Shown here in pieces: positions 1 to 32,531 of a stretch of DNA of 32,531 bases (the stretch's first letter is position 1; each line of letters starts with the position of its first letter). The DNA comes from a bacterium (GTDB taxonomy: Bacteria > Margulisbacteria > Marinamargulisbacteria > SXXA01). Under the pieces are notes generated by a model. It was not told the DNA's origin. It worked only from the letters and a program-made list of their open reading frames with translations, and did no database searches. The translations under genes were made by a program, and so were the position numbers. Where the stretch lies: contig CANNCG010000003.1 of the NCBI GenBank assembly GCA_947502965.1, positions 1 through 32,531 on the forward strand. Direction: 5' to 3'.

Positions 1-147
1 TTGCAAAGGAGCTGATCATTAGATAGAACAGGCTATGGAAATATGGAAAACTTCAGAGCAAGTTTCCCACAGTTCCACAGCCACGACGACGACGAATTTT
101 ATATCTCTTTTTTTTAGAACTTTGGTCCACCGTTAGGGGGCAAGCTC
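1..147. repeat. Left copy of a perfect 147-bp terminal inverted repeat; its reverse complement is at 32385..32531
   Basis: Direct comparison: the reverse complement of bases 1..147 is identical to 32385..32531. The match stops at 148/32384 (aaa vs cct). It contains short internal direct repeats (ccacag x2, cgacgacgacg) and an imperfect hairpin (ggaaaactt...aagtttcc). Confidence 0.9.
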
Positions 148-246
148 AAATTTCACAGTTCCTACTCAAAAGAAAAAATGATGAAAAAATAAAAACCAGC
201 AAATTTGATCAAAAATTTGATGACAACGAAGATAGCGAGAACGCCT

Positions 247-840
247 CTAGTAGCTCACCCCATAATAAACCGTCTTTCCCAACTCAATGAGTACCGTCTC
301 CGCCATTTCGGCATGCCGCCACCATGTCTCAGGATCTACCCCATCGTCACTGCCTTGGACAAACAGGTGCATGTCTGTCGGCAATACATCCCGAAAGGTC
401 CTGTATGACCGTGCAGTATGAAAGCGAGAGGTCACCAGCAAGACGCGACGTGCATGCATGGCCTGCAATATAGGCAAGCTCCCCGTCGCATTGGTTTGGG
501 TACTCAGGGCCGCGTCTTCGATGAGAATATTCTCTGAAGGCACCCCCAAAGATACCGCATAGTCGGCCATCATAGCGGCCATCGAGGTGTCAAAAAAAGG
601 CCCCCCGGTCATCAGTATACGGGGGGCTACCCCCGCATGATAGAGACGAACCCCCTCCCGAACACGGTCGCCAGTCGAACCCGCCAATACCACAATGACA
701 TCGGCACGGTCCGTCGGACGCGCTGTCACCAACACCGAAAAAACAGCCCGCATCCCAATCGGAAAAAAAATGAGACCCCCGATACTAATAAACAGGACAG
801 ACAACGCGGCATAAAAAAGGCGTTTAGGCTTGGGCATCAT
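247..840 (-). CDS. DUF218 / YdcF-ElyC-SanA family protein
   Basis: 197-aa ORF. N-terminal hydrophobic segment, then VIVVLAGSTGDRVREGVRLY...ILMTGG, typical of the DUF218 fold. ATGATG start lies 6 nt after the giant gene stop, so it is probably co-transcribed. Confidence 0.65.
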   Translation of the reverse strand: MMPKPKRLFYAALSVLFISIGGLIFFPIGMRAVFSVLVTARPTDRADVIVVLAGSTGDRVREGVRLYHAGVAPRILMTGGPFFDTSMAAMMADYAVSLGVPSENILIEDAALSTQTNATGSLPILQAMHARRVLLVTSRFHTARSYRTFRDVLPTDMHLFVQGSDDGVDPETWWRHAEMAETVLIELGKTVYYGVSY

Positions 841-846
841 CCAAAT

Positions 847-3800
847 TTACCGTTTCCGCAACACCGCTATTTTGGCCTGGCGTTCTTCATATTTGGTTTG
901 CAAATAGGTTTCCAAGACGCTTAGCTCCGTTTTGATCCCGGCCACTTCCGCCCGTAGGGAAACCACCTCGCCCAAACGCGCCCCTATATGTTTGTTTGCA
1001 AACGACATACCGACAATCGCATTGACCGTAGATTCCCCCGCGGCATCCGTCGCCGTCCATGCCTGCCCAATAATTTGAGCCGGATTGACAACCAACGACG
1101 CCGTAATCGCAACCGCTGTCCCATCCTGAAACCCTGACGCGATGAGATAATCTCCCGCACGTACCACGCCACGAACACGTACCGGCACCTGCCCCATAAA
1201 GGCCACCAAGCCAAAGGCATTTAGCTGTTCAAGGCCAGGAAAATTACCCGCCACAATAGGCCGCGAGCTGATCACACGCACACTGCGGGCCCCTGCCGTC
1301 GCACGTGACACCTGGCCATTGAAAACACCGACCACATCGCCAGGTCTCAAATTTTCAGCAGAAATTTTGGGTAAATACTCCGCATAATCCGCCTCAGGCG
1401 ACGCAAACTGTACGCCCCCAAACCCATCCATTTCAATGGAGCCCAATACCGTAGGCTTATATCCTAAAGTACGCACCTTTGTCGTATCCTTATGAATAAA
1501 CGTCATGAAATTAGCATCCGTTGCGGTACCATAATTCACCAAGGCCATATTTTGCGAACTCCCCTTTGACACGATGAGCACGGTATGCGAAAAAGGCGTC
1601 CTGGGATCGATACCCGTCATAGAGGGCCCCCCCTCTGCCTCACTACGCCGGACCACGTGCAATCCAGCCGCAGGCGACGTGGTCCCGATCCCCACACCTG
1701 CGCGGATAGGCAACTCCGTCAGCACCGTGGTGTCATTGGGATTGACGTATCCAAAAACAGACACCGTAAACCCTGTTTTCAAAGACGTCCCCTCTCCCCA
1801 ATTGACCAAGTTTGCAGCCACAAAACTTGATTTTTTGGGATATGTATCTACGATCAACTTGGAACTGGGGTTGGGCGAGGTTGTGCTCGTTTCGCCGATA
1901 TTTATCCGTAGCTCTGAAATCGCATTACTGCGGTTATAGCGTCCCATAAAATACTCATGCGTATTGTCACTATTCCCATCGGGGCTGTAAATACGGCCCC
2001 CAGAAAAATACGCTTTGGCACCCCAACCCGCCGGGGAGGTGAAGAAGCTCGTCGTCTTCACGCCCAGCTGCACATCCCCACTCACCACAAAGGGTCGGTC
2101 AATGGCCGCCAAATGGGCATTCCCCATAGGAAATCCGATCCCCACATGCCCAACCCCTACCGCAGATACCATCGACGTCGTCACCGTGGACGCATTGTGA
2201 CCCGACATGAGGTACAAGAATGAGTCCTGATTGCCACCACGCGCCACGTGAAACACCACACTGGCCTTGGTCTTGGCCTGCTCTAAGATGGCTTTTACGT
2301 TGACATTGGCTGTCGCAATATTGCCAGAGCTACGGGCATAGGCCCCCTTAGTCGTTTTCACCATATCGCCCGCCTCGATAAGTGCATCCGCCATCACCGC
2401 AGAGGCCGTGTCATCAGTCCCCTGTATAGCCGTGAACGCCAATGGCGTCACTTCATGATGGACAGCCTCATTCCCCAGATAGTTCAATACCATCTCCCGA
2501 CCAGAGCCCGCGGGGCTTGTGGTCTTAATTTTCAAAATATTCCCCGTGGCAATCCGTCGTCCGTCACGGTCCATCCCATAGGCCTGAAAAGCAATGTTCG
2601 CAGTAGAAATGACGGCAACATCGTCAACCGTGGCATGCCCAATGACCATGGGCCCGCCCATAAAGACCGCCGCTGCTTTGTAGCCAAATTTGTTGGTCGC
2701 GTATTCCTCAATCGCCAAACCGGTCACATCCACCACAAGCCCGTTGACTTTGACGGCTTGCGAATTTGGATTTGCCAAAGCCGCCATTGTATAGGCATTC
2801 TCTGAAGTCAAACGATATCCCAATCCTGTGACATGGGTGTCCTTCGAATAGGCTGCCAGCGTCATCACCACATTATGAATAGGCAAGGTCTCCTTGAATT
2901 CTGGTGGCGTCGCATATAAAACACCCAAAGACAGGCTTTTAAGTGCCATATAATTGGAGTTCACGAAGCCCGCAGTAAGGGGATTTCCAGTACTAATATT
3001 AAAGTCCCCGATCACATGCAGATCCTGAGACGGCACCAAGGTGCCAAGTCCCACCTTGCCCGCCGTATCCATCGTCATGGCGTTTGGCGATACCAGCGTG
3101 CTCACCCGAAACGGATATTGGGAAATATCCGTCGCCCCAATAGACAACGTCGCTTGGGGATCTGAGGACACCACACCCACGCGGGTCTTCCCAAAACGTA
3201 GCAGTTCCGTTTGATTCACATCTTTGACCAGCAACACATCCCCAGCATCTTTCCCCCACATGACAACCCCATCAGCAGAAACCGCTGCCGATTCACGATA
3301 GTGTCCCACAAAGGAAAAGTCTCCCGATTGGCGTACGGCATAGCCATGCAGCTGCGGATAGATTACCGGATACGGCGGATTGTCTAGCCATTTCGGTACG
3401 TTGGTCCATGTCGTATCATCACCAGCCGTCATAGATCCGCTCACCGCCATCGCCATATAGCTCTCCGTGGGCGATCTGCGCCAAATCCCCAGCTTGCCTT
3501 CTTGGCCCACCACCAGAGACACCCCATTGGCGGCAGCCACACGCAAAGGCCCAGCCCCACCTGTAGTCTGGGTAGTGTTCGTTGAGATGAAATCAACTAT
3601 TTCAGTAGAACCATTCCAAACAGACCCCACCGGCTTAAGCGCTGAAGTAACATCCGTATTGTTAGTACGAGGAATGACACCGTAGGTATAAGACACGCCC
3701 CCAATTTGGTAAGTTCCCAATAAAGAATATCTCCATCTACCACCCCCCTCATCAATCTGTGAACTAACTGTCCAAACAACATCCACTGGAAAAGTAAATT

Positions 3801-6800
3801 TGGCCTTATCAAAGGTCATATCGAACATCGCCGTCGGAGCGGTATTCCCGAGACCTGTCCGACCTGCCCCGGTGACCACAAAGGGATTCGAGGTGGTCGG
3901 ATTGTCAATCCAGAGGGCATGCCCCGTACTGGCCGAATGCACCACATTGAGAGACGCAATGGCCTCCGTAGAGCCAATCCCAACCGACCCCGTTTGCAGC
4001 GCCGTCAGTATGGGGGATTGTGCGGCATTTCGCACCAGAAGTCCCATATCCCCCGTCGCATGTACCAAGAGACGCGTGATTTCCAGCTGTGCCTCTCCGC
4101 TTGCCGTCCAAAGCCCCACATTGGATGTGACAGTGACTATCAACGCATTGGGCGTAGCTAACACACCCACCAGAAATGGACCAACGTTTGCGTTTGCGGT
4201 GACAGTACTTCCCACATGCAGCGTCGCATCCGGTGTCGGCGACGTTCCCAAATCCATCAATGTAAACACACCCATTGTCCCTTGGGTGTCGCCATTGTTT
4301 TCCGCCAAAAATACCGCCGATGCCTTAAACCCATCTACCGCAAAGTCTTCATTGAGCGGCAACAATGTGGAGCTTTCTGACTCCAATTGACTCAAATCTA
4401 CCCGAACCCCTATCGCCGTCTCGTTACTAGTCACCACGCCATCCAAGACAACATGGGTCCCGATAAACAGACTGGATCGATTACCGGTTCTAGGCCCAAA
4501 GCCCATGGTCACTTTGTTCGCACTATAGCCCGAGGCAAATGCGGTGGTATTCAGAGATGCGCTAATGCCTAGCGAATACTTTGATTGATCGAACATGGTT
4601 GAGACCACGTGCACGTGATTCCCGGTCGTCGTGTCTTGCTCCCACCACATCCCATCATTTTTGGCAATAATGCCATCTGTGCCATACATCACCATATTCA
4701 TGGTAGGTGGCCTATCACTTCCATAATTATGGAACATGCGAAGCAGGGGCACATTACGCCTATCCTCTCCGTTTGTGTATTTATAATGCGGCACGATATG
4801 GTCGGCAACCATTACGTCATTGAGCAATACCAATCCACTGAGGCTCTGATTCGACAAAACACTGCTACTGCTAATGGGAGTCATATACACGCTTTGACCA
4901 ACTTTCAGATTTCCCGTCGTGATAGTGAGGACGTTTGCTAGACCATTTGTTAGACCAATATTTAATGTTGGCAAAAACATATCGTCCGTAGACATCAGCG
5001 CATTCACGCTCAGATACTTGTTATTCATACTCGCTATATGAAGATCATGTCTAAAAAGGGCATTCTGAGACACCCACAAAGCAAATGAGGTAGCCAGTCC
5101 TACAGGCTTTTGGGGAATAAACAGCGTGTTAAACGTCGCAACATCCGCGATCAAGCCCTCGCTAGTCCATTCTTTTTGTGTAGACACATGATCCTGAAAA
5201 TTCAACGTTACGCCAGACGTATTGTCAAACCGCAAGGTGTCCAACACTTCCAAATCAACACCTGAGGCTATGATGGTCATTGTGTTCAAAGTGGCAGATT
5301 GTCCCAACGGCAATACCAAGCGGTTAAACGTCGCAGACGTTGCGTTCACCGACACCGTGTTGATAACTGCATCCTTCCCCGTGATAACCCCAGAAACCGC
5401 CAGTGCCGTAGCCGGTGCCGTCGTCCCTATCCCAACATTGCCCCCCAGCAACACCAATGGGTTACGGGATGTGCTGATAGCGTCATGGCCCATAGTCACC
5501 GCGATGCCATAGGCAACGCCGTTGCTACCAAGTTGCAAATCACCCAAATCAACCCAAAGCCCAACCGCCTCTACAGGCGTCACCCCAGTACCAAACTGAC
5601 CCAAAATCCCATCCGCAGCAAAAGACATTTCATAGCCAATAAAAGGAACAAAAACCGACGAAATCGAGCCATTTTTTCCCAAATTCATCGACACCACACG
5701 TTGCGTATAGTTTTGCGTTAATTGCTCAGGAAGCGCGATGTTTTTCGCTATCGTCAGCGCATGGTCTGGCAACAAGGATCCAATCCCCAGATGACCCGCA
5801 CTGGTGATCGCCACAGACGTACCCAGCTGCAAGGCACCGGAAACAAGCTCCCCCAACCCCGCCTGGTTCGCAGAAGCCGTCCCGGCAACAGACCACGCCG
5901 CCGCATTGGGCAACTGCCCTATCGCAACGCCGAGATCACCCCCCGTCATGACCTGCGTTGTCCCTGCCATCAGGGCAAAGGCATCCGCATCGCTATAGCC
6001 TTTGACGGACAGTTTCGCAGAGGGAATCGGTTCCCCAACAGACAGATACCCAAGGCCATCAGACCCCATGGCGGTCCTGGAAGCCGTCTGTATCCATAGT
6101 GGGTTCGTTAAGGCGGAGACAACATGTAAATTGGCACCGGGCAAGAAAGAGGTTCCTAAATCCTCACCGGTATGAATCCCGACGTTTCCACTGGTCTGGA
6201 GCCCAGACCTAAAGATGGCCGCAATCTTCGTACCCACGACAGCGTCCCCATTGGGCAACGTCATAGTGGCCCTCAAAGACTGCATGTCGACATACACGCC
6301 CCCGGCAACCTCGCCAGGCGCCATACCCAAAGGGGTCCCATTCCCTACCAGCCCTACCCCTACCCCCGTAAATACCGCGCTACTTGGCGTGATACGCGGT
6401 CCCATTCCTGTCGAAATACGGGCTGCACGCACATCGCCCAACCCCGTTGTCACCCCATACCCCGTATAGAGCCCCAGCACCCCATTTCCAGAGGCAATCG
6501 TGGCATTGGCAGTCCCTACACGCAGCACTGAGTAGGTCACCCCTAACGACGACTCCCTGACGGTATATGTCATAAACGGTTGGTCTGACACACGCCTGTT
6601 TTCGTTATATCCCGCCACGCGATTGGCAACACCGAGAATCGCACTGCTCACATTGGCCATCACCCCTGTATTGGGATTTCGGAAGATCAGTGCCTGATCC
6701 GCAAAGGCATTCTGAGACGACACAAACAAGGTGGTATACGGCGTATAGGCCGACGGGTTTTGGGTCGCAACCGGAGCCATTTGCAAATAGGTCATCCCTA

Positions 6801-9800
6801 TAGCGCCCGTATGCGTCACCCTATTCGCACTGATAACGAGTGGCGAATTAACCGTCAAGGTTTCACCGGTAATCGCGGAAGAAATAGTCACCGTAGGCAC
6901 AGTCAAAGACCCCAAAAGCCCCGACCCAGACACCCCCAAAACTGTATTATCGGCAAACCCACTATGAGCACCCACAAAAACAACATTTGCCGTCCCGAGA
7001 ACCGAATGCAAGACCTTCGCGTCAAATTGATTTGCGTCTTGTACACTTTGAATATTAACCGTCGTATTGCCATCGATTTCCAGCGTGCTCAGTACTTCCA
7101 ATGACATAGGATTCCGATTGTTGATATTAAACGTGGTAATACGCGCGTCTCCCCCAAAAAAAGCATTGGTCGTAATCGCAGACAATGTCCATTCACCCCC
7201 GGAAGCGATGAGACTGTTTGCACGAATAGATCCATTAATATCCAAAGCCACGTTGGGCTGACTCACCCCCATCCCAACATTGCCCCCCAAGAAAGTGGCC
7301 GCATATCGGCCTGCACCCGCAGTCTTAGAAATACCCATATCGACATAAACCCCCATCACAGGATTGCCTGTGATGGCTACGATGTCTTTCAAATCCAAGA
7401 CCATTCCTCTGGCCAATTTCGAACCGGCACTCCCCTCAAATATAGCAGAAGCATCTGTACTCACTACCACCTCTATACCCGTCAGGTTATGGGTCCTCGT
7501 GCTATTCAAGGTCTGACGAATATCTTGCATAGGAAAATGAAGGGGCATGGCTGCCGACGTTGTGAATTGGCGCACCATCGTAAACTGTCCCAAAGGCGTT
7601 GTCGTCCCCAACATCACCTCACCCAAAGACGATACCAGCAACCCTGAATTGTCCGTATTGACAGACAAGGAAGACGATTGCAGTCCCCCAAAGGACGTCA
7701 TTGGCGCAGACAGCGTCCCCACTACCGACAACGCCTGACCAGGTTGCGACGTCCCGATGCCCACACCCGTATTGTTCACACTCAGAACAGAGGCCCCAGC
7801 CGCAGAAAAGAGCGTCATGGCCGCCCTATCTGTAGTCGCTGCAACCGACAATTGGGAATTCGGCGAAGCAGTTCCCATCCCCACAAATGCATTGGACGAC
7901 ACAAATAGCGCATCCAGCCAAACAGAATCGACTTTTTTTTGCACCCATAACGGCGTGTGGGTCCTCCCAGCAACAATATGAAGCGAGGCACTAGGCACCA
8001 TATCACTATCTGAACCTGAAATAACCCCAACGTTCCCACTGCTTTCAGTTCCCACCAAAAAGGCAGCCGCAAAGGCAGACCCCGTCACCACCGTGCCATT
8101 GCTCAATGTGGTTTTCGTACGCAAATTATCCGATACCGTGACAGACAGACCCACGAACCGGTCATGCACATAACTAATCCCCGCCAAGGCAAGGTCCATC
8201 CCAAAAAAGCGTGCAGATCCTGGTGTTGATCTGTCTTTAAACCCCAATCGTATGGATTGCAGCGCCTTGCCTTCTGTGATGTTGAGGGACACAAGGCCTA
8301 TCACAGCAAAACGGCTGCCCTCTGAATAGGTAACCTCATTGCTGGTGGTGATACGCAACACGCCTACTGTGTTTTCTGTTGCCCATTTGATAAAGCTCAC
8401 ACCCGCCATTGACCCGTTGCCCTTAAAATAAGGCACTGTTTCGGGAAGAACCGACGATGTCACACTCAGGTTCCCTTGAACAGAGAACCCATTTTTTTTC
8501 ACCTCGTAAAAAAGTTCCTTGGTGATGGAATCAACAAACAAGTTGCCATTGTCAGACGAAATCGAAGTCACCCCAGACGGGAAGATCCGCAAATAAGGGG
8601 TCCGCAAACGGTCAAGCACCAGAAGAGAGGTCACATTGGTCGTAATAGAAAACGTCACGTTTGTACCCGCCATGGCATTCACAAACATAGAGGCCGTTGG
8701 CAAAGTCATCGCCGTGGAAAAAACGGACCCCTTGACATGCAGCGACGCGGTTGGGAGCGTCGTACCAATCCCTACCCACCCGGCATCGGTAATCCGCAAG
8801 CGTTCTTGGGGATAGGCCTCGCCTCCTTCAGGATCTGTCACAAAAGCCAATGCCGAGGCCGCATCTGTACCGGAAGCGAACGTTTTTACCCCCAAAACAC
8901 CAGCGCCAGACGGACCGGACTCATCAAAGTTAGAGAGAAGTACCAGCCCTACCGCATGGCCAGGAGTCGCAACCGACGCCTGTAAAATCAAGGGATTCCA
9001 GGTCCTATAGTCAGAGGCCACCGCCACTGCATCTGTATTAGTGAGTCGATAGGACTCCGTTTTCATATGTACACTTGAGGCGGGAGACGCGGTCCCAAAC
9101 CCTGCACGCGAAGCCTCCGTGATCACGAAGGTCTGATCATTCACACCCAAACGAGCAACCTTAATTTCACCCGCAGTACTATTCAAAGAAGAGGCGGTGA
9201 AGGTCCCATAAACCCGCAAGGCTTCCGAAGACAATACCCCGCCCACAGCCATCTTGTTCACCGATACCGATTGCAGGCCCGCCGTCGACACGACAGTCAC
9301 CGCATTGAGCGTCGCCATCGCGTTGACAGAGACAAAGGACTGCGCAAAAAGTCTGTCCCCCACCACCAAACTCTGCTCAGGAATAGACAGGGTTCCCTGC
9401 AAACGCAAGTTGTCCTGGCGCAAGGTTGTCACATACAAATCCTGAAAATGTCCCCCTTGCGTCACCTTCACATTATTGGCCACATTGAGCATGCTAAATG
9501 ACGCGACTTCTTGCTCTGTTAAAAAACTGGCAGCAGGCGCATTTGTGGCATAAATTGTGCCCGCTACTTCCAACGGATACGCTGGCGTTGTGGTCCCAAT
9601 TCCCACATTACCCCCCATAAACACAGCCACCCTACGCGATGTATCTCTATTGGAAGACGCCGTAGCGGACAGCCCCACCACAACCCCGCCTGTGGGAACA
9701 TTCAAGCCTGACAAATCCACCTTGTACCCCGTACCCACCACACGCTTGATACCGTCCTTATCGCCCAATTGGTTGGTATAATTGTTCCCAGAGTTCGAAG

Positions 9801-16118: not shown

Positions 16119-16197
16119 CATGCCCCTTCATATCGGACGAAAAGAGGCAAAACTTGCATGCGACTATACCCGTTCCAAAATAGAATCGGGATTCTGC

Positions 16198-16233: not shown

Positions 16234-16285
16234 CCCACATCCATTTCTTGACACCTTTGTCCAGCCCAGGGTACGGTAATAAACC

Positions 16286-18473: not shown

Positions 18474-18479
18474 TGGCCT

Positions 18480-20185: not shown

Positions 20186-20209
20186 GCGTTTGCTCCTATA
20201 GCCGGTTTT

Positions 20210-20995: not shown

Positions 20996-20996
20996 C

Positions 20997-22810: not shown

Positions 22811-23169
22811 AGCTTTCTTTTGTCCGGCCTCAGCGCCGTCGCCCCTTTGAGATAGACATGCTGGATATCGGATCCCGATTTATCCGTATTCCAATGGATC
22901 AAAATCCTAATACAGTGGGCCAACGCACCAGGCACCGAGATCTCCGCCGCACACATCAAGGGCACATCAGAGAAGCCCATGTCGCGGGCCGCAAACGCCG
23001 GAAATTCTGCATCCAAATCGGGGGTGAGGGTGAAGATAATCGAGGCGATATCTTCGAGCAGAATCCTATTTTCAGTGATCATGGTTGAGAGCAGAAACTT
23101 GGTTTCTTGGACAATGTCCGCTTTGCTATTTTGAGCAACCGTACTGGCGCCCCTCACTCCCCGAACCAT
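22807..23169 (-). CDS. aroH: AroH-class chorismate mutase
   Basis: [11 protein letters not shown] ... [41 protein letters not shown] ... [13 protein letters not shown] is collinear with B. subtilis AroH (MMIRGIRGATTV...FPAKAVRE...CIRVMMTVQTD...HVYLEKVVVLRPD). Start taken at the fourth codon (ATG 23169) by homology. Confidence 0.85.
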
Positions 23170-23843: not shown

Positions 23844-23986
23844 CGGCTATTGTTTCAGGAAAATAGGGTTTTAAAGCATTCATTATGCACCTTATATACC
23901 TTTTTTTCTGGGATCAAAAACCCCATGTGTTGCACTTCGAAGTTAAACGCGGGAAAATAAAAAAATCAGAAAAAGGAGAAAAAAAC

Positions 23987-24391
23987 ATGAAAACCACAAT
24001 CATTGCGTATCTTGCTTCATTTTTGACAATGGCCTTGGTAGATGGTATTTGGCTTTCGTTAACAGCAAAATCGTTTTATGCAAAAAACATGGGACCCCTG
24101 ATGAACGCAACACCCTATTGGGTGCCAGCTGTTCTCTTTTATCTACTATTTCCGATTGGGCTGACGTTCTTAGTGATACTTCCTGTGATGAAGGGGGGCG
24201 GTTCTCTTGTGCAAGCGGGATTACTGGGTGCATTGTTGGGCTTGGTGAGCTATGGCACCTACGATCTTACCAACCAGGCGACAATCAGGGAATGGCCTTT
24301 TGTTGTTACGGTTGTGGATTTGATTTGGGGCACGTCTGTTTCAGCGGTGGTTTCTATGGTGGCCCTTAAGATTGTGATGAAGTTTGGGTAA
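23987..24391 (+). CDS. Small integral membrane protein (DUF2177-like)
   Basis: 134 aa, four hydrophobic segments. ATG at 23987 preceded by AAGGAG with 8-nt spacing. The ORF-track N-terminal extension (from 23885) is probably not translated. Confidence 0.55.
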   Translation: MKTTIIAYLASFLTMALVDGIWLSLTAKSFYAKNMGPLMNATPYWVPAVLFYLLFPIGLTFLVILPVMKGGGSLVQAGLLGALLGLVSYGTYDLTNQATIREWPFVVTVVDLIWGTSVSAVVSMVALKIVMKFG

Positions 24392-25567
24392 TCACCCCCA
24401 CGCCCTCTGCCACCACCGCTGTGTCGTGGGATGCTGCGCGACCTGAATGGCTCCGGTTTTCATCCCATAAAGCACCACGCCTACGGCCACATGGTCTTCT
24501 GGGTTGCGGATAGTGTGGTGGAACTGGGGATGTATGCCCAATCGGACGGGTGCTTCAAAAATCTCCGAGGCCAAAATGCCCAATCCAGGAATGGCGCTAC
24601 CGCCACCTGCGATGATCACGGGAAATCCTGACATATCCACATGCCTGAGCTTTTTGCGCACGAGGGCAAGGGTTTCCCGGACTCGCGCACGAATCACCTC
24701 CGCGAGTATCCGACGTCGGATATCACGGGGTCTGCCGTCACTGGGGATTCCCGGGATGATGTCCCCATCGGGAATGACAAAGGGCAAAACATGGCCATAT
24801 TTTATTTTGACGCGCTCAGCATCTGAGATGGGAATACGCAAACACTGGGCGATGTCTTGGGTAATACGATGTCCCCCCACCGGCATCACGGAGCCCAACA
24901 CCAAGGTTCCTTTTTGAAACAGGCTGGCCCTTGTCCATTTCCCACCAATATCGATCAGCAAGGCGCCATATTGACGCTCTGCATCGCTCAGACAGGCTGC
25001 GCCAGCACCGAACTGATCACAGGACAATCCGGCCACATAAAATCCCAAATTTTTGACAATACGGGTGATACTGTCCACCATGTTTTGATCTGAAAAAATA
25101 ACGCGTGCGGTTATTTCCAATTGACGACCCGCTTTGCCAATGGGGGTATCCACGGGATGTCCGTCTAGCAGCGTCTCGATACTGCTGCCATGGACCATGA
25201 TCTCATGGGGATGTCTGACCACCTGCATGGCCCGTTTGAGACACTGTGTGACATCTTCGGCCTGTACCAAACCTGAGACATGTTGGAGTGACAGCACCCC
25301 TGAATTGATGACAAATCGGGTACCAAATGTGGGAAGTCCCACCACCACACGGCCGGGTTTCACACTGGCGGCACGCGTGGCCCGTTGCACAGACCGAAGG
25401 ATGCTTTGGGAGAGCCCATCTTCGTCGGTGATGCCCGTTTCATCCAGCCCTGTTGTCGCGGAACGTCCCAGACCACGAATAATGACCTCCTGCGGCTGGG
25501 GGAGTTCGCAGACCACCGAAGAGATTTTGCTTGATCCAATGTCCAGGCCCAATACACTTTCAGCCAT
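24392..25567 (-). CDS. ftsA: Cell division protein FtsA (actin-like ATPase)
   Basis: LGLDIGSSKISSVV ... ALLIDIGGKWTRASL ... VIIAGGGSAIPGL are actin-fold phosphate 1, phosphate 2 and adenosine motifs in FtsA order. Immediately downstream of ftsQ. Alternative start 25576. Confidence 0.85.
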   Translation of the reverse strand: MAESVLGLDIGSSKISSVVCELPQPQEVIIRGLGRSATTGLDETGITDEDGLSQSILRSVQRATRAASVKPGRVVVGLPTFGTRFVINSGVLSLQHVSGLVQAEDVTQCLKRAMQVVRHPHEIMVHGSSIETLLDGHPVDTPIGKAGRQLEITARVIFSDQNMVDSITRIVKNLGFYVAGLSCDQFGAGAACLSDAERQYGALLIDIGGKWTRASLFQKGTLVLGSVMPVGGHRITQDIAQCLRIPISDAERVKIKYGHVLPFVIPDGDIIPGIPSDGRPRDIRRRILAEVIRARVRETLALVRKKLRHVDMSGFPVIIAGGGSAIPGLGILASEIFEAPVRLGIHPQFHHTIRNPEDHVAVGVVLYGMKTGAIQVAQHPTTQRWWQRAWG

Positions 25568-26348
25568 TTTCGGCATACTTTACAATGACTTTGCCTTTGG
25601 CGCGCATGTCAATATACTCCAACGGCTTGGGGTCTATTTCTTTGCCATAATACCAAAAGAATTTTTTGAGGAGCACCAGTTTTTTTTCCAGATCCACCAA
25701 AGAGCCCAGCCGGACGGGCAAGGTGTCATCACGGAGCAAGACAACATCGTCGAGGCCTTCAAATTCAGACGAAAAATCGAGCCCGGTGCAATCCAGCTGT
25801 AAGGCCGCATCGGGGAAGTGATAACGCACTTTGTCTACAATCGTGCGCAGTTTGGCCAAAACGACATCGCTGAGCTGATCATGGTCGAATAGCGCGGGGG
25901 GTAATCCCCGAATAATGAGCAAGTTGTCTTTTTCGGTTAAGCCGCCGTCGGTGGCGCCATCGGACAAGAGGGTGCCATCTTTGGCAATGACCACACTGCC
26001 CGTTTCTCCTAAAAAAGCCAGCCAAGGTTCTTTTTCAGTGATATGGAGGGTGAGGGTAGCGGGGAACGTAATATCCATGTCTGCTTTTTCAATTTTGGGG
26101 AATTTTTTCAGAATAAAGTCACTGCCCGTGACCCAGCGTAGCCACATCACATTTTGGCCTTTATGACGGGAAACTTCCGCAATGAGAGGAGAGTCCTCTT
26201 GGAAGTTATTGTCGCGAATCACGACTTTTTTGAGGGGAAACATGCTGTATTTAAATGCACGATATCCCCCATAGCCTAAGGCCATGATCAAAAACAAAAC
26301 GCCCATATAAAAGCGTCGACGGCGGATATGTGGCGGTGTTTTAGCCAT
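25560..26348 (-). CDS. ftsQ: Cell division protein FtsQ/DivIB (single TM plus POTRA-like periplasmic domain)
   Basis: MAKTPPHIRRRRFYMGVLFLIMALGYGGY gives a short cytoplasmic region plus TM helix, followed by a periplasmic domain. Sits directly upstream of ftsA. ATGGCTAA overlap with the upstream gene's stop. The ORF track extends spuriously to 26510. Confidence 0.7.
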   Translation of the reverse strand: MAKTPPHIRRRRFYMGVLFLIMALGYGGYRAFKYSMFPLKKVVIRDNNFQEDSPLIAEVSRHKGQNVMWLRWVTGSDFILKKFPKIEKADMDITFPATLTLHITEKEPWLAFLGETGSVVIAKDGTLLSDGATDGGLTEKDNLLIIRGLPPALFDHDQLSDVVLAKLRTIVDKVRYHFPDAALQLDCTGLDFSSEFEGLDDVVLLRDDTLPVRLGSLVDLEKKLVLLKKFFWYYGKEIDPKPLEYIDMRAKGKVIVKYAENG

Positions 26349-27537
26349 TAGAAATTTGGACTGGGGCAAATCCCCCTCCAAGCGTTTGAAAGTTGGTGAC
26401 CTGACCTTGAAACAATCTGGCACCCACCATGAGCACCACCTCACCATAGACAAAAAACCGCAGATCATATTTAAACATGGCCGGTTGCGCAGTGAGACTG
26501 TCAGTCTCACTTGGCAGGGTCACAGGGACCATGTCTGCCTGAAAATAAGGCTGTACCACATAGGCTTGATCGAGAAGGGTATCGAATTTTTTTCTGGAAA
26601 TAGAACTCCCTTTGTATACGGCCTTGCTTCCGTAGGTATTTTGGGGTTTAAAAAAACAGTGTTTGCGTTGCTGCCACCATGTTTCGGGAGATTCGTCTTG
26701 GATATGGCGAACAGGGGGAATCACCGATTGAATAAGAGCGATAAGGGCGGTATCGCAGCCGTAGCGCTCCAAAAAACTGGTTTGGGACATGGTCACCATC
26801 CGCCCCTTGTCTGCCATCAGGGCGTAGCTACTAGGATGGGGAGAGACGTGTACCTTTGGATCTGAAATCGCACGTGCGAGGACAGTGTTACTGGGCATGC
26901 TGAGGTAAAAATCACAGCAACGGTTGTAAATATTATCAACAGGTTTCCCCAACGCCATCAACTGTTCCCCATCGTAATAGAGGTCTTTCATATCCACGAT
27001 GTCACAGAGATAGCCCCAGGATTGAAAGATAGCTTGATAGCTTTTGAATTCAAACATCGTGCGCTGTTCAAAAACATCTTCATCCACAATGACCACCCGT
27101 TGACCGGGAATCACAGGGCCCCATTCGGCGACAAACATCTGGCGCAAGGGGTCCCAGACGTCGGATGAGGGCACGGGTGTCAGTCCATGGGCGGCGTAGA
27201 GCAACGCAATGGTGGGATAGCCTGCCCCATTGGTATTAATTTCGATGAGGCGTGGACCTTCTGGCGTCATATAAAAATCAAAACAGAGCAAGGCCGAATC
27301 CGCGTTATCCAAGCGCACACCTTCTTGAATGGCGGCTTGGGTGTCTTGCCTGTAGAGGGGATGGTCTGTGACCCGACGAAAGGTACGTATAAATTTCTGG
27401 CACTGCGCGAATGTGGCGGATGAAAGGGGAACCACAGTGTCAGACACAAACAACGGCATCATGGTGGGTTCCTCTGCGAGAAAAGAAAGTGTCGGAAAAT
27501 GGGTTTTGGGGGTGTCTAAAAAGCGACGAAATGTCAT
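26341..27537 (-). CDS. ATP-grasp superfamily protein, apparently circularly permuted, in the ddl position of the fts cluster
   Basis: 398 aa. C-terminal half has ATP-grasp central/C motifs: CFFKPQNTYGSKAVYKG, AYVVQPYFQ, YDLRFFVYGEVVLMVGARLFQGQVTNFQTLGGG. The motif that normally ends the fold (FDFYMTPEGPRLIEINTNGAGY, cf. Ddl/RimK DF...EvN..PG) lies near the N-terminus (residues ~85-110). Confidence 0.5.
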   Translation of the reverse strand: MTFRRFLDTPKTHFPTLSFLAEEPTMMPLFVSDTVVPLSSATFAQCQKFIRTFRRVTDHPLYRQDTQAAIQEGVRLDNADSALLCFDFYMTPEGPRLIEINTNGAGYPTIALLYAAHGLTPVPSSDVWDPLRQMFVAEWGPVIPGQRVVIVDEDVFEQRTMFEFKSYQAIFQSWGYLCDIVDMKDLYYDGEQLMALGKPVDNIYNRCCDFYLSMPSNTVLARAISDPKVHVSPHPSSYALMADKGRMVTMSQTSFLERYGCDTALIALIQSVIPPVRHIQDESPETWWQQRKHCFFKPQNTYGSKAVYKGSSISRKKFDTLLDQAYVVQPYFQADMVPVTLPSETDSLTAQPAMFKYDLRFFVYGEVVLMVGARLFQGQVTNFQTLGGGFAPVQISNG

Positions 27538-27547
27538 GGCGAGGTTC

Positions 27548-28339
27548 CTATACTAAAGTCAGAGGGGCAGGATAGCAAAAGTGGTAGTTTAACGCTATTT
27601 TCAGTTTGCGGTTCGAGACCATTTTTCCACCTGCCACAGTGTCGCTATTCATGTCATATAGGGCGGCTCTTGTGGGATGACCGTCACTCACCGCATTCCA
27701 GACATGTCCCCAGTGATTGCCACGCATCATAGTCATGACGATGCCGATGACATCGTCTCTGTGGATCAGATTCACACGACTATGGGGCGTATGTTTGGCG
27801 AGCCCTCGCGTCGCAAAACTGTGGACAGGCCTGTCGGGGCCATAGAGTCCCCCCAGGCGCAATACCGTCGTGGGTCCGGCGTGAGACATGATGACCGCCT
27901 CTGCTTCGGCCAATGCGCGGAGCCGTGGCGCAATGGGAGAGAAAGAGAGGTCTTCATCGACCTCATGATCACAGTCGGGGTAATACGATGTCGAACTGGT
28001 GAACAAAAGCTGTTGATGCGGCAACAAGGATCGCAAAATTTCACGCATTTGGGCCACATAGACAAAGGGATCCACAAAGTTGCGGCGAAAAGGAAGTGTG
28101 ACGATGATGGTGTCGCTGTCCCAGCAGGCGTCTTTGGCACGGCGAGGATTTCCCTCCCCAACCTCTCCCATGGGAGGGGTTCCCACTTCGAGGAGGTGAG
28201 GGGTAAAGCCCTCTTTCGCCAACAGGTCACATTTTCCTGGCTGGGTGGTGGTGGCGTGAACGCGCCAGCCGTCGGCATGCAGGGCCTTCCCCAGAGATAG
28301 GCCCAGCCAGCCGGTGCCCAATAGGCTAACCGTTTTCAC
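27548..28339 (-). CDS. NAD(P)-binding Rossmann-fold protein (epimerase/dehydratase-like or atypical SDR); start uncertain
   Basis: KTVSLLGTGWLGLSLGKALHADGWRVHATT glycine-rich dinucleotide-binding motif. The preceding ~58 aa of the ORF-track model overlap cbiX and look non-coding. GTG at 28339 chosen as a provisional start. Confidence 0.5.
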   Translation of the reverse strand: MKTVSLLGTGWLGLSLGKALHADGWRVHATTTQPGKCDLLAKEGFTPHLLEVGTPPMGEVGEGNPRRAKDACWDSDTIIVTLPFRRNFVDPFVYVAQMREILRSLLPHQQLLFTSSTSYYPDCDHEVDEDLSFSPIAPRLRALAEAEAVIMSHAGPTTVLRLGGLYGPDRPVHSFATRGLAKHTPHSRVNLIHRDDVIGIVMTMMRGNHWGHVWNAVSDGHPTRAALYDMNSDTVAGGKMVSNRKLKIALNYHFCYPAPLTLV

Positions 28340-28706
28340 AGAGCGTGGTGACAATATCCCCGATGGCGGTGATGACCATGGGGTTTTCCCCGATAGGGCG
28401 TTCCATGGCGATGTCCAGTGCTGGAAAGGCCTCTGCAACCGCAGCGATCTGTGTGGGAATATCGTGATCCACATGTCCCCCACTGGCCATAAACAGGGGC
28501 AAAACCCGTACACGAAACGGCATATCGATGTGGTCGGTCCATGCGCTCACCACGTCCATTAACGTGGGTGAGGCAATTTCCATGTAGCAGAGATGCATGT
28601 CTTGGTCCGGATTTTGGGCTTGCAGTGTGGCAGTCAAGTGTTTAAATACGTCACACCACTTGGGATCACGACTGCCATGACAGATCAACGCAACTACGGT
28701 TCTCAT
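28326..28706 (-). CDS. cbiX: Small CbiX-type sirohydrochlorin chelatase-like protein
   Basis: MRTVVALICHGSRDP ... VRVLPLFMASGGHVDHDIP matches the short CbiX pattern (HGSRdp ... PlfL..G.H...DIP). ATGA overlap with the upstream SPFH gene stop. Confidence 0.65.
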   Translation of the reverse strand: MRTVVALICHGSRDPKWCDVFKHLTATLQAQNPDQDMHLCYMEIASPTLMDVVSAWTDHIDMPFRVRVLPLFMASGGHVDHDIPTQIAAVAEAFPALDIAMERPIGENPMVITAIGDIVTTLCENG

Positions 28707-29503
28707 CTGTTGAGCGACTGTAAAAAAGGCAATGCCTTGGCATCGGATACGACCTGAGGCATCTTCCCATCCCATTTTTCGATGGCCATTTTTTGGAGCA
28801 CGGCGGGTGTCAATGTTTGAATCAGAAGGCGTTGGGCTTCGGCTTGTCCACGTGCGCGGGCCACTTCGGCATCGGCTTCATTTTTGGCGCGTTCAGAGAG
28901 AAATCTGGCCTGTTGGGCTTGTTGTTGTGCGATTTGTTTTTGCTCAATGGCTTTGTCAAATTCGTCACTGAAGTCCAAGTTTGCAATAGAAACATCGGTC
29001 ACAATAATGCCACGAATTTTAAGTCTTTCTGTCAATGTGCCCAAAATATCTTCTCGGAGATCTGTTCTCAAAATGAGCAACTCTTCGGCTGTTTTTTCAG
29101 CACAAGCAGCCTTGACCATTTCTTGGCTGGCGGGACTCAAAATACGGGCAATAATAGCCGCCTCATCCCCAACTTCCCGGTAGATTCTGACGATAGCCGT
29201 GGGGTCTATATAATAATTGACCACGACATCCACGGCGACCTGTTGCAAATCTTTGGTCCCTGCAGTGCCACGGATATCTGCTTTTTGAATACGGATACTC
29301 ATTTCATGAACTTGGCTCACAAAAGGCGTGACCATATGAATACCTTCTCCGAGTACCGTTTCGTTGATGCTCCCCAAGCGAACCAATACCCCACGATTCC
29401 CCCCCTCGATGATGACCACGGACAAGTAACAGAGGATCAATACAAGACCTACAGAAGCGCCAAGTGCGAGCTTGCGAATATCTGGAACTTGTTGTTGGGA
29501 CAT
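28703..29503 (-). CDS. SPFH/band-7 (prohibitin/HflC-like) membrane protein
   Basis: 266 aa. N-terminal TM helix (LALGASVGLVLILCYLSVVII), then GNRGVLVRLGSINETVLGEGIHMVTPFVSQVHEMSIRIQK... typical of band-7 domains, and a coiled-coil A/Q/E-rich tail. AAGGAG SD 7 nt upstream of ATG 29503. Confidence 0.8.
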   Translation of the reverse strand: MSQQQVPDIRKLALGASVGLVLILCYLSVVIIEGGNRGVLVRLGSINETVLGEGIHMVTPFVSQVHEMSIRIQKADIRGTAGTKDLQQVAVDVVVNYYIDPTAIVRIYREVGDEAAIIARILSPASQEMVKAACAEKTAEELLILRTDLREDILGTLTERLKIRGIIVTDVSIANLDFSDEFDKAIEQKQIAQQQAQQARFLSERAKNEADAEVARARGQAEAQRLLIQTLTPAVLQKMAIEKWDGKMPQVVSDAKALPFLQSLNR

Positions 29504-29704
29504 AGCGAACTCCTTTAAAATATAGACATATCCCCAAATTGAATTTGCGGATACGCTCCGAAATACATACTGGAGAGAGTCTATCCAAAAAGACAGGGGT
29601 TGGCGAGACTCTCTCTGTCATTTACGCTACGCGGTGTGCTTGGGGGCCAGGCGCTCCCAAGCAACCACCTCCCCGCGTACAAAATTGCTCCGAAAGGCAA
29701 ATAA

Positions 29705-29980
29705 ATGACCCCACGAGAATCCCGTATATTGGCCCTTTTGACTACGACATTCCAGCCCTTACACCTCACGGTGCGCAACAGCTCTGCGGGCCATCGCGGC
29801 CATCAAGGCGCCTCTACGGAAAGCCATTTTGACGTGCATATTGTGTCTGACACCTTTACAGGGATGTCGCGGATCGCCCGACACCGCGAGGTCAATGCGG
29901 CCCTCAAATCACTTTTTGATGAGGGACTTCATGCCCTGACAATCGTGGCAATGTCGCCGGAAGAATCCCCGCTGTCTTAG
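29705..29980 (+). CDS. bolA: BolA-family protein
   Basis: 91 aa. RNSSAGHRGHQG...SHFDVHIVSDTFTGMSRIARHREVNAALKSLFDEGLHALTIVAMSPEE matches BolA (S.HxGH ... HF.v.ivS..F.g.s.v.rHr.v...L...iHALsi). Confidence 0.7.
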   Translation: MTPRESRILALLTTTFQPLHLTVRNSSAGHRGHQGASTESHFDVHIVSDTFTGMSRIARHREVNAALKSLFDEGLHALTIVAMSPEESPLS

Positions 29981-30005
29981 TGGGGATTTGTATCGATCGA
30001 CAAGG

Positions 30006-30025
30006 GCGTACGTCATAACGTGCGC
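30006..30025. promoter_or_regulatory. Imperfect 20-bp palindrome gcgtacgtcataacgtgcgc upstream of yefM; candidate antitoxin operator
   Basis: 16 of 20 positions are self-complementary. Lies 10 nt upstream of the AAGGAG SD of yefM. Confidence 0.35.
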
Positions 30026-30046
30026 TTTCATATCAAGGAGATGCTT

Positions 30047-30376
30047 ATGACAACAGTAAATGCAACCGAAGCGCGTGCACAATTGTATACCCTTATCGAT
30101 GAAACAACGGCCTCCCATCAGCCGATCGTGATCAAGGGAAAAAGATCCAATACCATTTTGCTGTCAGAGGAAGATTGGAATACCATTAATGAGACACTCT
30201 ATTTGGTATCTATACCAGGAATGCGTGAATCGATTATGAAGGGCAAACTTTGGTTGAGGAGTGCAGCCCGGAGCTTGACTGGTAATGTGGCAATTGGCCT
30301 ATACCAAACAGGCGCAAAAAGATGCCCAAAAGCTGGAGAATTCTGGCCTCAAAGACAAGGCTCGAAAACGGTTTAA
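30047..30376 (+). CDS. yefM: YefM/Phd-family antitoxin; in-frame stop only at 30376, but a +1-shifted frame gives a canonical C-terminus ending TAATG at 30283..30287 (possible frameshift)
   Basis: AAGGAG 6 nt upstream of ATG 30047. MTTVNATEARAQLYTLIDETTASHQPIVIKGKRSNTILLSEEDWNTINETLYLVSIPGMRESI is collinear with E. coli YefM. After RESIM the in-frame continuation (KGKLWLRSAARSLTGNVAIGLYQ...) looks like out-of-frame translation of yoeB. The frame starting at 30229 reads IDYEGQTLVEECSPELDW-stop, with TAA overlapping the yoeB ATG. Confidence 0.6.
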   Translation: MTTVNATEARAQLYTLIDETTASHQPIVIKGKRSNTILLSEEDWNTINETLYLVSIPGMRESIMKGKLWLRSAARSLTGNVAIGLYQTGAKRCPKAGEFWPQRQGSKTV

Positions 30377-30545
30377 AATACTGCGTCAAAATCCGTTTCA
30401 GAATCCGCCACCCTATAAAAAGTTGGTGTGTGATTTGCAAGGGGCCTATTCCAGACGTATCAACATTCAGCATCGGTTGGTTTATCAGATTCTTGAACGT
30501 GATAAAATCGTAAAAATACTGAGACTTTGGACCCAGTATTCATGA
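30285..30545 (+). CDS. yoeB: YoeB/Txe-family toxin (mRNA interferase)
   Basis: 86 aa. ...NPFQNPPPYKKLVCDLQGAYSRRINIQHRLVYQILERDKIVKILRLWTQY matches the YoeB core (nPF...KPE.Lk..lsG.WSRRI..eHRLVY.v.dd.l.I...ryHY). Confidence 0.75.
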   Translation: MWQLAYTKQAQKDAQKLENSGLKDKARKRFKILRQNPFQNPPPYKKLVCDLQGAYSRRINIQHRLVYQILERDKIVKILRLWTQYS

Positions 30546-30562
30546 GCGGAAGGGCGCAGCCC

Positions 30563-30591
30563 TTGGCTATCCCCCTTGTCACTTGTATGAT
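30563..30591 (+). promoter_or_regulatory. Candidate sigma70-type promoter for queF-smpB-queC (TTGGCT, 17 bp, TATGAT)
   Basis: -35 TTGGCT at 30563..30568, 17-bp spacer, -10 TATGAT at 30586..30591, about 38 nt upstream of the queF ATG (AAAGGA SD). Direct repeat cttgtcac x2 flanks the -10. Preceded by a GC hairpin (aagggc-gca-gccctt, 30550..30564) just after the yoeB stop. Confidence 0.35.
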
Positions 30592-30629
30592 GAGCCATAC
30601 GTACTTGTCACCTCAGAAAAGGAACCCCC

Positions 30630-31019
30630 ATGGCAATTGCAGAAGGTCTCTCACTTCCTTTTGAATCTGAATCTGCCATCCGCGTAGATTTTCTCGAAAC
30701 CTTTCCCTATGAGGGGGCCCGCCAACGGGTCCGCTATGAGACCTCCGAGTGGTCTTGTGTTTGTCCATTTTCAGGCTTGCCAGACTATGGGCGTCTGGTC
30801 ATCGACTATATCCCCGATGGCCATATCGTGGAGCTCAAATCCCTCAAATATTACATCGTGTCCTATCGCAATATCGGGATTTACCAAGAGCCCGTGACCA
30901 ACCGTCTTTTTCAGGACTTAAAAACACTGCTAGCGCCCCAATATTTGCGTATTGAGACAATTTACAACACCCGTGGGGGCATTGATACCACATGCGTGAT
31001 CGAAGAAGGTCAGGCATAG
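30630..31019 (+). CDS. queF: NADPH-dependent 7-cyano-7-deazaguanine reductase (YkvM-type, unimodular)
   Basis: 129 aa. ETSEWSCVCPFSGLPDYGRLVIDYIPDGHIVELKSLKYYIVSYRNIGIYQE ... RGGID matches QueF (E.SE..CP.tGqPDfa...i.Y.p....vEsKSLKlYl.SfRn...fhE ... rGGI). Confidence 0.85.
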   Translation: MAIAEGLSLPFESESAIRVDFLETFPYEGARQRVRYETSEWSCVCPFSGLPDYGRLVIDYIPDGHIVELKSLKYYIVSYRNIGIYQEPVTNRLFQDLKTLLAPQYLRIETIYNTRGGIDTTCVIEEGQA

Positions 31020-31023
31020 ACCC

Positions 31024-31488
31024 ATGATCTCTGACGTTCGCTTGCTGGTTGCCAACAATAAAAAAGCCCGTTTTGACTATGAAATCGTCGATACATTGGA
31101 AGTCGGTATCTCGCTGGAAGGCTGTGAGGTCAAATCGGTGCGGGCAGGCAAGGTGAGCCTCAAAGAAAGCTATGCCAAACCCGTGGGGTCTGAGCTGTGG
31201 TTGGTGAATTGTCATATTGCAGAATACACGATGGCCACCTTTGACAAAGTAGATCCCTTACGGCAACGCAAATTGTTATTGCATCGCCGTGAGCTGAGCC
31301 GTTGGATGGGGAAATGTCAGATCAAAGGATTTACGATTGTCCCGTTGCGTATGTACATCACCAACGGACAGCGTGTGAAGCTGGAGATCGGGCTGGCCAA
31401 GTCCAAAAAAACACATGACAAACGGGCGACTGTCAAAGAACGGGATGCAGACCGCGAAATCTCGAGAGGCTTGGGAGGTCGTTATTAG
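31024..31488 (+). CDS. smpB: SsrA-binding protein
   Basis: 154 aa. VANNKKARFDYEI...GISLEGCEVKSVRAGKVSLKESYA...WLVNCHIAEY...DPLRQRKLLLHRRELSRWMG...KGFTIVPLRMYITNGQRVKLEIGLAKSKKTHDKR is collinear with SmpB. Confidence 0.9.
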   Translation: MISDVRLLVANNKKARFDYEIVDTLEVGISLEGCEVKSVRAGKVSLKESYAKPVGSELWLVNCHIAEYTMATFDKVDPLRQRKLLLHRRELSRWMGKCQIKGFTIVPLRMYITNGQRVKLEIGLAKSKKTHDKRATVKERDADREISRGLGGRY

Positions 31489-32145
31489 ATGGCAACGGCA
31501 CTGGTACTTTTGTCTGGCGGTCAGGATAGCGCCACATGTTTGGCATTGGCGATTGCAGAATTTGGGGCCGCTGAAGTGATGACCTTGTCTTTTGATTATG
31601 GCCAGCGTCACCGTATAGAGCTGCAAAAAGCCCAAATTTTAGCGGCAACGGCGGGCGTGTCCTATCAGGAAGTGGCGCTTCCTTTTATTGGGGGCCTGTC
31701 CCACAATGCCTTAACGGACAATACGATGGTCATAGACGCACTGGGGCCAGAGAGTATGCCCAATACCTTTGTGCCAGGTAGAAACTTGTTTTTTCTCAGT
31801 GTGGCGGCGGTTGTCGCCAAGCAGCATGGGATACGTATTCTCTATACGGGGGTATGTCAGACGGATTATTCGGGATATCCAGATTGCCGAGATACCTTTG
31901 TGAAATCCCTAAATGTGACCTTGAATTTGGCGATGGAAGACCATTTCGAGATTCGCACACCGCTCATGTGGATGACCAAATCGGAGACGGTGTTGCTGAT
32001 GGCCGAGATGGGGCGCCTAGAGTGGTACGGCCATACGTACACATGTTACGAAGGCGTGGTCCCGCCATGTGGGACGTGTCCCTCATGTCTGCTACGCGCA
32101 AAGGGCTTCCATGAAGCAGGGATTTTCGATCCTCAGTTTGCATGA
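31489..32145 (+). CDS. queC: 7-cyano-7-deazaguanine synthase
   Basis: 218 aa. ALVLLSGGQDSATCLALA (PP-loop SGGxDS), FDYGQRHRIEL, and C-terminal Cys cluster CYEGVVPPCGTCPSC (zinc site) match QueC. Confidence 0.9.
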   Translation: MATALVLLSGGQDSATCLALAIAEFGAAEVMTLSFDYGQRHRIELQKAQILAATAGVSYQEVALPFIGGLSHNALTDNTMVIDALGPESMPNTFVPGRNLFFLSVAAVVAKQHGIRILYTGVCQTDYSGYPDCRDTFVKSLNVTLNLAMEDHFEIRTPLMWMTKSETVLLMAEMGRLEWYGHTYTCYEGVVPPCGTCPSCLLRAKGFHEAGIFDPQFA

Positions 32146-32384
32146 TCGCGTCCTGTTGGCGCTGTCGCAAAAAAGCCATGTTTAAAACTTTCAAATCGTA
32201 AGCGCTCCAGGAACCCGATACTGCCGTCCCTCGAAAAATAGAGCTACGCTTTAGTAGCGAGTAAAAACTACGGAGACGTCAAATAGAAAAAGAGAGAGAA
32301 ACAGACTGGGAAGCGGAATATATAGGGTGGCAAAAGAGTGGGTTGAGCCAAGTGGCGTATAGTACAAAATCTGGATACAGCCTG

Positions 32385-32531
32385 AGCTTGCCCCCTAACG
32401 GTGGACCAAAGTTCTAAAAAAAAGAGATATAAAATTCGTCGTCGTCGTGGCTGTGGAACTGTGGGAAACTTGCTCTGAAGTTTTCCATATTTCCATAGCC
32501 TGTTCTATCTAATGATCAGCTCCTTTGCAAG
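32385..32531. repeat. Right copy of the 147-bp terminal inverted repeat
   Basis: Exact reverse complement of 1..147. Confidence 0.9.

Follow-up and report, generated by a model that had tools for sequence, protein, structure and literature searches.

Organisation of the contig ends

Contig CANNCG010000003.1 of NCBI GenBank assembly GCA_947502965.1, from a bacterium of the GTDB lineage Margulisbacteria; Marinamargulisbacteria; SXXA01, begins and ends with the same sequence in opposite orientations. Analysis of the whole stretch of 32,531 nucleotides (hereafter the window) led us to conclude, with high confidence, that it is a short-read metagenome contig that ends inside two oppositely oriented copies, here called copy A (left) and copy B (right), of a multicopy 1324-bp insertion sequence (IS) of the IS3 family. 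A whole-window repeat search, combined with a reading of the first and last 600 bases on both strands, returned a single long inverted repeat, with arms at 1-148 and 32383-32530 that are 148 nt long and 100% complementary, and no other comparable repeat in the window. A preliminary description, made from the letters of the window, had reported a perfect terminal inverted repeat of 147 bp in which bases 1..147 were the exact reverse complement of 32385..32531. The repeat proved real and beyond chance, but its length is 148 nt and the earlier register was off by one base. The right arm stops 1 base before the window edge, and the remaining base, 32531, is the 149th base of the repeated element, where every longer copy carries a G at the same distance from the tip. 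The 26-nt motif that terminates the element is confined to two sites in the window, with 0 expected from 100 shuffles.

Bases 1..148 (plus strand) form the right-hand terminus of copy A, truncated by the contig boundary, and show 100% identity to the final 148 nt of complete copies, while 32383..32531 (minus strand, 149 nt) correspond to the same end of copy B, the reverse complement of 1-148 plus one base. Next to copy A lies a 98-nt spacer (149..246) running from the IS tip to the stop codon of a DUF218 gene (247-840, minus strand, assigned by Pfam). This spacer, the presumed target DNA of copy A, had no similarity to any IS compared, and its junction with the element is shared by three other assemblies, each from a different sample (L006, L007 and L008; loci and contigs compared here carry L numbers). 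From 247 to 32197 the window consists of a native chromosomal segment, as judged from Pfam matches and collinearity with relatives, and its last 52 nt are native intergenic DNA following queC. Between this segment and copy B are 185 nt (32198..32382, plus strand) that we assigned to the left end of an IS66-family element, cut by copy B, on the basis of a terminal-repeat match and a break in synteny.

The interior of the window reads as ordinary chromosome. Pfam matches comprised ThrRS, FtsA, an FtsQ-type POTRA protein, SmpB, QueC and QueF, together with prephenate dehydrogenase, chorismate mutase, a BioD-like ATPase, a methyltransferase, a lipoate/biotin ligase-family protein, Band_7, BolA, a Phd/ParE pair and the DUF218 protein, and no transposase or integrase domain was found by Pfam in the interior. 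The core genes (thrS, ftsQ/ftsA and smpB) and the lack of both enzymes had already been noted in the preliminary description. Searches of the whole window with Rfam (gathering thresholds) and ARAGORN found no RNA family and no tRNA, so the repeat is not of the rRNA or tRNA type.

Both ends run into a transposase gene

Other assemblies of the locus were recovered by exact-protein look-up of the two outermost genes, and two of them pass the window edges. At the right end, contig CAXNJR010000002.1 of NCBI GCA_964202675.1 (L001) extends 292 nt further, and at the left end, MEGAHIT contig k141_2663611 of ENA ERZ27280234 (L006) extends 185 nt further, in both cases into the second open reading frame (ORF) of the IS, orfB. 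In L001 as in L006, the same ORF lies past the end, reading towards the window and ending in ...QRPHQALGYKTPESIYYAKNQLAKELIIR* (also written ...YNTQRPHQALGYKTPESIYYAKNQLAKELIIR*). The fragment beyond the ends matches NCBIfam NF033516, 'IS3 family transposase', over positions 278-367 of 369 (E 2e-29), and also matches Pfam rve_3.

This continuation into the transposase ORF therefore divides the left arm into the last 8 codons and TAG stop codon of orfB (1-26, plus strand), a non-coding tail (27-122) and the terminal repeat at the right end of the IS (IRR; 123-148, assigned by motif match), whose tip lies at 148. In copy B, on the minus strand, the IRR occupies 32383-32408 with its tip at 32383, next to which lie the bases GCC, and the orfB stop codon lies at 32505-32507. 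The repeat had been described as devoid of coding potential, a statement contradicted by bases 1-26, which encode the end of the transposase (...LAKELIIR*). The sharp inner boundary that had been noted for the repeat was confirmed and coincides with the physical tip (5'-TG) of the insertion sequence.

Both junctions were reproducible. The left junction is identical in 4 assemblies from at least 3 samples, the other three being L006, L007 and L008, and the right junction was seen in 3 assemblies. All seven of the contigs that reach a junction (7/7) carry the same two junctions, with no alternative among them. A look at second assemblies and a search for further copies of the repeat had both been proposed in the preliminary description. 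The first gave the reproducible junctions above, and the second placed the 148 nt within 1324-bp elements that have many different neighbouring sequences.

The IS copy at the right end of L001 carries a 1-nt deletion in orfB (around 11190-11200) relative to all other copies, plus two substitutions. Either this copy has decayed, or collapse of the repeat has introduced an error into the consensus.

The repeated element is an insertion sequence of the IS3 family

The full-length element was recovered by a scan with the 29-nt IRR tip (one genome per species), followed by a protein search with OrfB and then a look-up of the orfA variant. Among genome contigs, the tip scan returned one complete copy, in 'Bacterium isolate M30B43' (L009), and in the JGI metagenome contigs scanned it returned no match. 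Searching with OrfB of L009 led to a 95%-identical cluster of 75 sequence variants (P0001), whose C-terminus is identical to the sequence adjoining the window, and look-up of the accompanying orfA variant yielded ten more contigs. Complete copies were found on other metagenome contigs ten times, each exactly 1324 bp from tip to tip, a length that falls within the 1.2-1.55 kb of the IS3 family.

The terminal repeats are 26 bp long, have TG...CA tips and are identical at 23/26 positions between the left end (IRL, TGAGCTTGCCCCCAAAAAGTGGACCA) and the right end (IRR, TGAGCTTGCCCCCTAACGGTGGACCA), with the consensus TGAGCTTGCCCCC[A/T]AA[AA/CG]GTGGACCA over the ten copies. The IRL can be recognised by TGAGCTTGCCCCCAAAAAGTGGACC. 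Imperfect inverted repeats of 20-40 bp with 5'-TG...CA-3' ends are those of the family, and in both length and termini the 1324-bp element resembles IS3, IS911, IS2, IS150 and IS407.

The coding organisation is likewise that of the family. An orfA of 97 aa with a helix-turn-helix (HTH) region has its frame open at element positions 40-348 and is followed by orfB (frame 273-1199) in the -1 frame relative to orfA. The two overlap at 273-348 across a run of T and A that contains GAT TTT TTA AAA, so that, at sequence level, the arrangement of orfA and orfB in 0/-1 frames with a slippery sequence in the overlap is present. With 273.7 bits against NF033516, OrfB passes the NCBIfam IS3 equivalog cutoff of 160; its match spans profile positions 94-367 of 369, and orfA covers 3-81. 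As in other members, the Pfam domains of OrfB are HTH_21, rve and rve_3, and motifs of the DDE type can be read (WCADITY, NTDQGSQFTS and IERLWRSVK). The closest annotated plasmid genes share 51-56% identity and are labelled just 'IS3 family transposase', which gave no assignment to a subgroup (IS3, IS51, IS150, IS407 or IS2).

Some features set the element apart within the family. The common slippery site of IS3-family elements is A AAA AAG, unlike the candidate site T TTT TTA of this element; the tail after orfB, 122 nt, is rather long; and a 3-bp target duplication was seen only once. Apart from the 3-5 bp target duplication of the IS3 family, seen at one of ten complete copies, the testable sequence hallmarks of the family are present, and the element classifies as an undescribed, previously unnamed member, since it shares no more than 56% amino-acid identity with any annotated transposase in the plasmid collection. 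Its transposase would be an OrfAB DDE protein whose synthesis depends on -1 ribosomal frameshifting, with T TTT TTA, where orfA and orfB overlap, as the probable site, and the element is presumably still active. Movement would follow the copy-out-paste-in route via a circular intermediate, by analogy with transposition in the IS3 family (PMC6350997).

IS-free relatives and a nested insertion at the right end

Relatives of the locus were reached through searches with QueC and then TrpRS, giving L027, L028, L029 and L031, which share 95-96% DNA identity with it. Window 22870-32197 is collinear with L027, L028 and L031 at 95-96% DNA identity, and all four relatives carry queC, about 210-270 nt, a hypothetical gene and trpS, with no IS in any of them. 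L027, L029 and L031 go on past trpS to gidA/gidB and gyrA/gyrB. Since these relatives are collinear and free of the IS, the interior of the window is native chromosome and the IS copies are later arrivals. In relatives with a 94%- or 88%-identical QueC, the intergenic DNA is too diverged to define the insertion site, which was located with the closer relatives L027, L029 and L031. For the left junction, a search of JGI metagenomes with the DUF218 protein found no relative; the 62,753-nt contig behind L031 (ERZ27280276:k141_523077), of which 21 kb were read, may span that site.

Homology to the relatives stops exactly at 32197/32198, which is 185 nt before the tip of copy B (32382/32383), and the relatives stay alignable with each other past this point. 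Terminal repeats of the IS66 family start with GTAAGCG, as described for IS679 and IS66 and in ISfinder. The 185 nt begin in the same way with GTAAGCGCTCCAGGAACCCGATACT (32198-32222, plus strand), which matches the terminal repeat of an element on L018 at 23/25 positions, where 0 such matches are expected by chance. The L018 element encodes an IS66 TnpB (NF033819, 90.8 bits, cutoff 50) and a TnpA-like gene (weak match). A short ORF from 32343 on the plus strand (LSQVAYSTKSGYS), probably the start of tnpA, resembles the matching part of L018 TnpA (LRQRGYCQGGGYS) at a similar distance from the tip, a resemblance that is weak when taken alone. Because the 185 nt carry an IS66-type terminal repeat, copy B lies inside the 5' part of an IS66-family element. 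Compared with the tnpA-tnpB-tnpC organisation and 8-bp target duplication of that family, the window holds only these 185 nt and no IS66 gene, because the IS3-type copy interrupts the element, and past the 25-nt repeat the sequence differs from that of the L018 element. The presence of this second repeat also accounts for L003 and L004, two Logan contigs built at k=31 that end at 32247, 50 nt inside it.

Association with other mobile elements was seen repeatedly. On L010, L011, L013, L014 and L018, the IS3-type element lies beside or inside IS66-family and DDE_Tnp_1 (IS4-like) transposase genes. L011 carries two IS3-type copies 112 nt apart, and one IS66::IS3 junction (flank ggttttacgattacg) was shared by two samples. 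The host genomes are IS-rich, with nested insertions, a known pattern for IS elements (PMC8369957).

Why the contig ends inside the repeat

At their IRR end, 8 full-length copies (L011-L013, L015 and L017-L020) show 100% identity to the window ends, and the final 150 nt vary at 2 positions at most among all copies, while 12 different sequences are found next to the IRR tip. The orfA variant P0137 occurs in 103 blocks of the collection, 92 of them without any contig above 2 kb. In most cases the element therefore stands alone on a contig of about its own length, which is how collapsed repeats behave. Break depth also tracks the k-mer size: at k=141, the MEGAHIT contig L002 reaches exactly 140 nt (k-1) into the IS, whereas at k=31 the Logan contigs L007 and L008 reach 28 and 13 nt. 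Both features are those of repeat-induced breaks in de Bruijn assembly, in which contigs stop about one k-mer into a multicopy element (140 nt at k=141, 13-28 nt at k=31) and full repeat copies appear as separate contigs of about IS length, and we found no difference of substance.

These observations fit a simple sequence of events. Insertion of copy A took place 98 nt downstream of the DUF218 gene; at the other end, an IS66-family element inserted 52 nt downstream of queC, and copy B then entered the 5' part of that element. Both copies face the 32-kb segment with their right end, the IRR, downstream of the transposase stop codon. Because both contig ends show this same IS end, they represent two separate inverted copies rather than one copy closing a circle. 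On either side the assembler could follow the repeat for only about one k-mer, which left 148 and 149 nt of it in the contig and gave the look of a perfect 'terminal inverted repeat'. The break would be due to the copy number of the element within this particular genome. If no inversion has taken place, this reconstruction predicts that copy B is followed by the remainder of the IS66-family element, by a second 8-bp copy of TTCAAATC and by ATGGGTATACC..., with the hypothetical gene and trpS beyond.

Several points weigh against contig breakage within two IS copies as the explanation. The break at 148/149 nt corresponds to k-1 of no identified assembler, and among the IS copies there is no polymorphism at depth 148-150 to account for the break point. 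Many copies come from related metagenomes and not demonstrably from the same cell line, the two flanking copies are visible from their inner side only, and the IS-free comparison covers the right site and not the left. Finally, a 3-bp target-site duplication was found at only 1/10 complete copies, where ATC lies on both sides (the second copy on L011), the contigs being short (2-3 kb) and their flanks possibly chimeric.

Alternative explanations for the inverted repeat

Of the three explanations offered in the preliminary description, the closest was that inverted repeat copies bracket a chromosomal segment which could flip by homologous recombination. Inverted copies do bracket a 32-kb chromosomal segment, but the repeated unit is the 1324-bp IS and not a sequence of about 150 bp. 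With two near-identical inverted copies 32.2 kb apart, inversion would be a possible consequence of the two IS insertions and not an alternative to them, and identical IS copies are known to recombine with each other, giving rise to rearrangements and to the absence of target duplications (PMC11708052). That the segment is invertible nevertheless seems rather unlikely to us, as each of the junction-reaching contigs carries one of the same two junctions, and inverted IS pairs are commonplace and do not imply switching. The contigs stop within the IS copies, so the orientation of the segment relative to trpS and gyrA is not visible in them. There is only a slim chance that the 32-kb core-gene block is an invertible segment polymorphic in the population, or a large IS-bounded translocatable unit like the IS2 'megacircle'.

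A composite transposon, in which the IS copies and the 32 kb between them enter or leave as one mobile unit in the manner of Tn5/Tn10 or a 'megacircle', has the formal layout of IS, cargo and inverted IS in its favour. As in Tn5/Tn10 and the megacircle of Burkholderia thailandensis, two IS copies flank long DNA, and the megacircle is bounded by IS2, a member of the same family as our element; members of the IS3 family are able to mobilise even a very long intervening stretch, 210 kb in length (PMC6350997). Since such mobilisation is possible in principle for the family, mobility of the 32-kb unit is simply unsupported. We nevertheless regard a composite transposon as highly improbable. Unlike in these systems, the cargo is native core chromosome with single-copy core genes (thrS, ftsA, ftsQ-like, smpB, queC and queF), the target sites are unrelated, and one of the copies is nested. 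The interior is collinear with IS-free relatives, at 95-96% identity, through the right boundary into trpS, gidA and gyrA, so it is not foreign to the site and was not brought in as a unit, which speaks against acquisition as a composite transposon. Copy B alone is nested in an IS66-family element, copy A is not, and the two therefore represent separate insertion events. In addition, the outward-facing ends of such a unit would both be IRL. Across the assemblies and relatives compared, we found no evidence of the 32-kb block moving as a unit.

The preliminary description had likewise disfavoured a large transposon, on the ground that the interior carries core genes and no transposase or integrase. 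This judgement holds, because collinearity with the chromosome of IS-free relatives carries on past the right boundary and the IS copies occupy unrelated target sites, one of them within another IS, but the lack of a transposase fails as a reason, as a transposase gene lies just outside the window at both ends.

A telomere-like repeat of a linear replicon, or a hairpin or fold-back mis-assembly that copied one end, would place the repeat at, or one base from, both sequence edges as observed, but has a negligible probability and was ruled out by L001 and L006, which run 292 and 185 nt past the edges into the transposase gene, so that the repeat is not the physical end of a molecule; the same 148 nt also lie inside 1324-bp elements with many different flanks, different assemblers and samples reproduce both junctions, and the gene content is chromosomal, with relatives placing the segment beside gyrA/gyrB. 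The suggestion of an assembly artefact was right in that the window edges are assembly break points induced by a repeat, and wrong in proposing a hairpin mis-assembly or a telomere, given that independent assemblies reproduce both junctions and run into the IS.

The observation is thus real and its explanation ordinary. When a metagenome contig breaks inside two inverted IS copies, a 'perfect terminal inverted repeat' is just what one would expect to see, and without long-read evidence such a repeat is no ground for inferring a telomere, a giant transposon or an invertible cassette. In an uncultured lineage whose closest named relatives are Margulisiibacteriota, the IS3-type element appears to have multiplied alongside IS66- and IS4-like elements and with insertions nested in one another, an expansion that explains the short contigs in assemblies of this group.

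Additional observations in and around the window

For QueC and TrpRS, the closest homologues with a named source belong to Candidatus Margulisiibacteriota / Marinamargulisbacteria, with only 57-64% identity, a hint from two proteins and not a placement. Closer relatives (75-100%) are all metagenome sequences, most of them lying on short contigs.

A giant ORF (847-14514, minus strand) of 4555 aa without interruption lies immediately upstream of the DUF218 gene. The predicted protein has a signal-peptide-like N-terminus, is rich in G, V, A, T and S with cysteine at 0.0% of residues, and contains a GNVGIGTT-like motif about eight times. It matched no Pfam family and no solved structure by sequence, and an exact-sequence look-up found it not on record. 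By contig arithmetic, the contig of one relative (L028) appears to end inside the homologue of this gene.

Two further repeats of a different kind were observed in the interior. At 22326-22430, within the prephenate dehydrogenase gene (21752-22810, minus strand), there are 4-5 tandem diverged units of 21 nt (CCACCGGCTCCGCCAGGAAAG...), and the contig behind L027 ends, by contig arithmetic, within a few hundred bases of them. At 16189-16242, a palindrome of 27+27 nt, 85% complementary and without a spacer, occupies the divergent intergenic region between ORFs at 15456-16121 (minus strand) and 16286-16744 (plus strand). Just upstream of it, at about 16030-16171 by coordinate arithmetic, two MEGAHIT contigs of ERZ27280234 overlap by about 141 nt. 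Because this overlap is about one k-mer, the assembly graph appears to branch near the palindrome.

Near the smpB/queC boundary, contig L005 (GROS21-1 scaffold_174896) carries a replacement of 10 nt (about 417-426) versus 33 nt in the window (31437-31469), and its queC call does not translate to the query protein. Between bolA and queF, at about 30020-30545 of the window, lies a pair of genes for a Phd/YefM antitoxin and a ParE/YoeB toxin. This region varies among close relatives: L027 (13554-13910) has only a faint Phd-like ORF, and L031 (13429-13931) has both genes.

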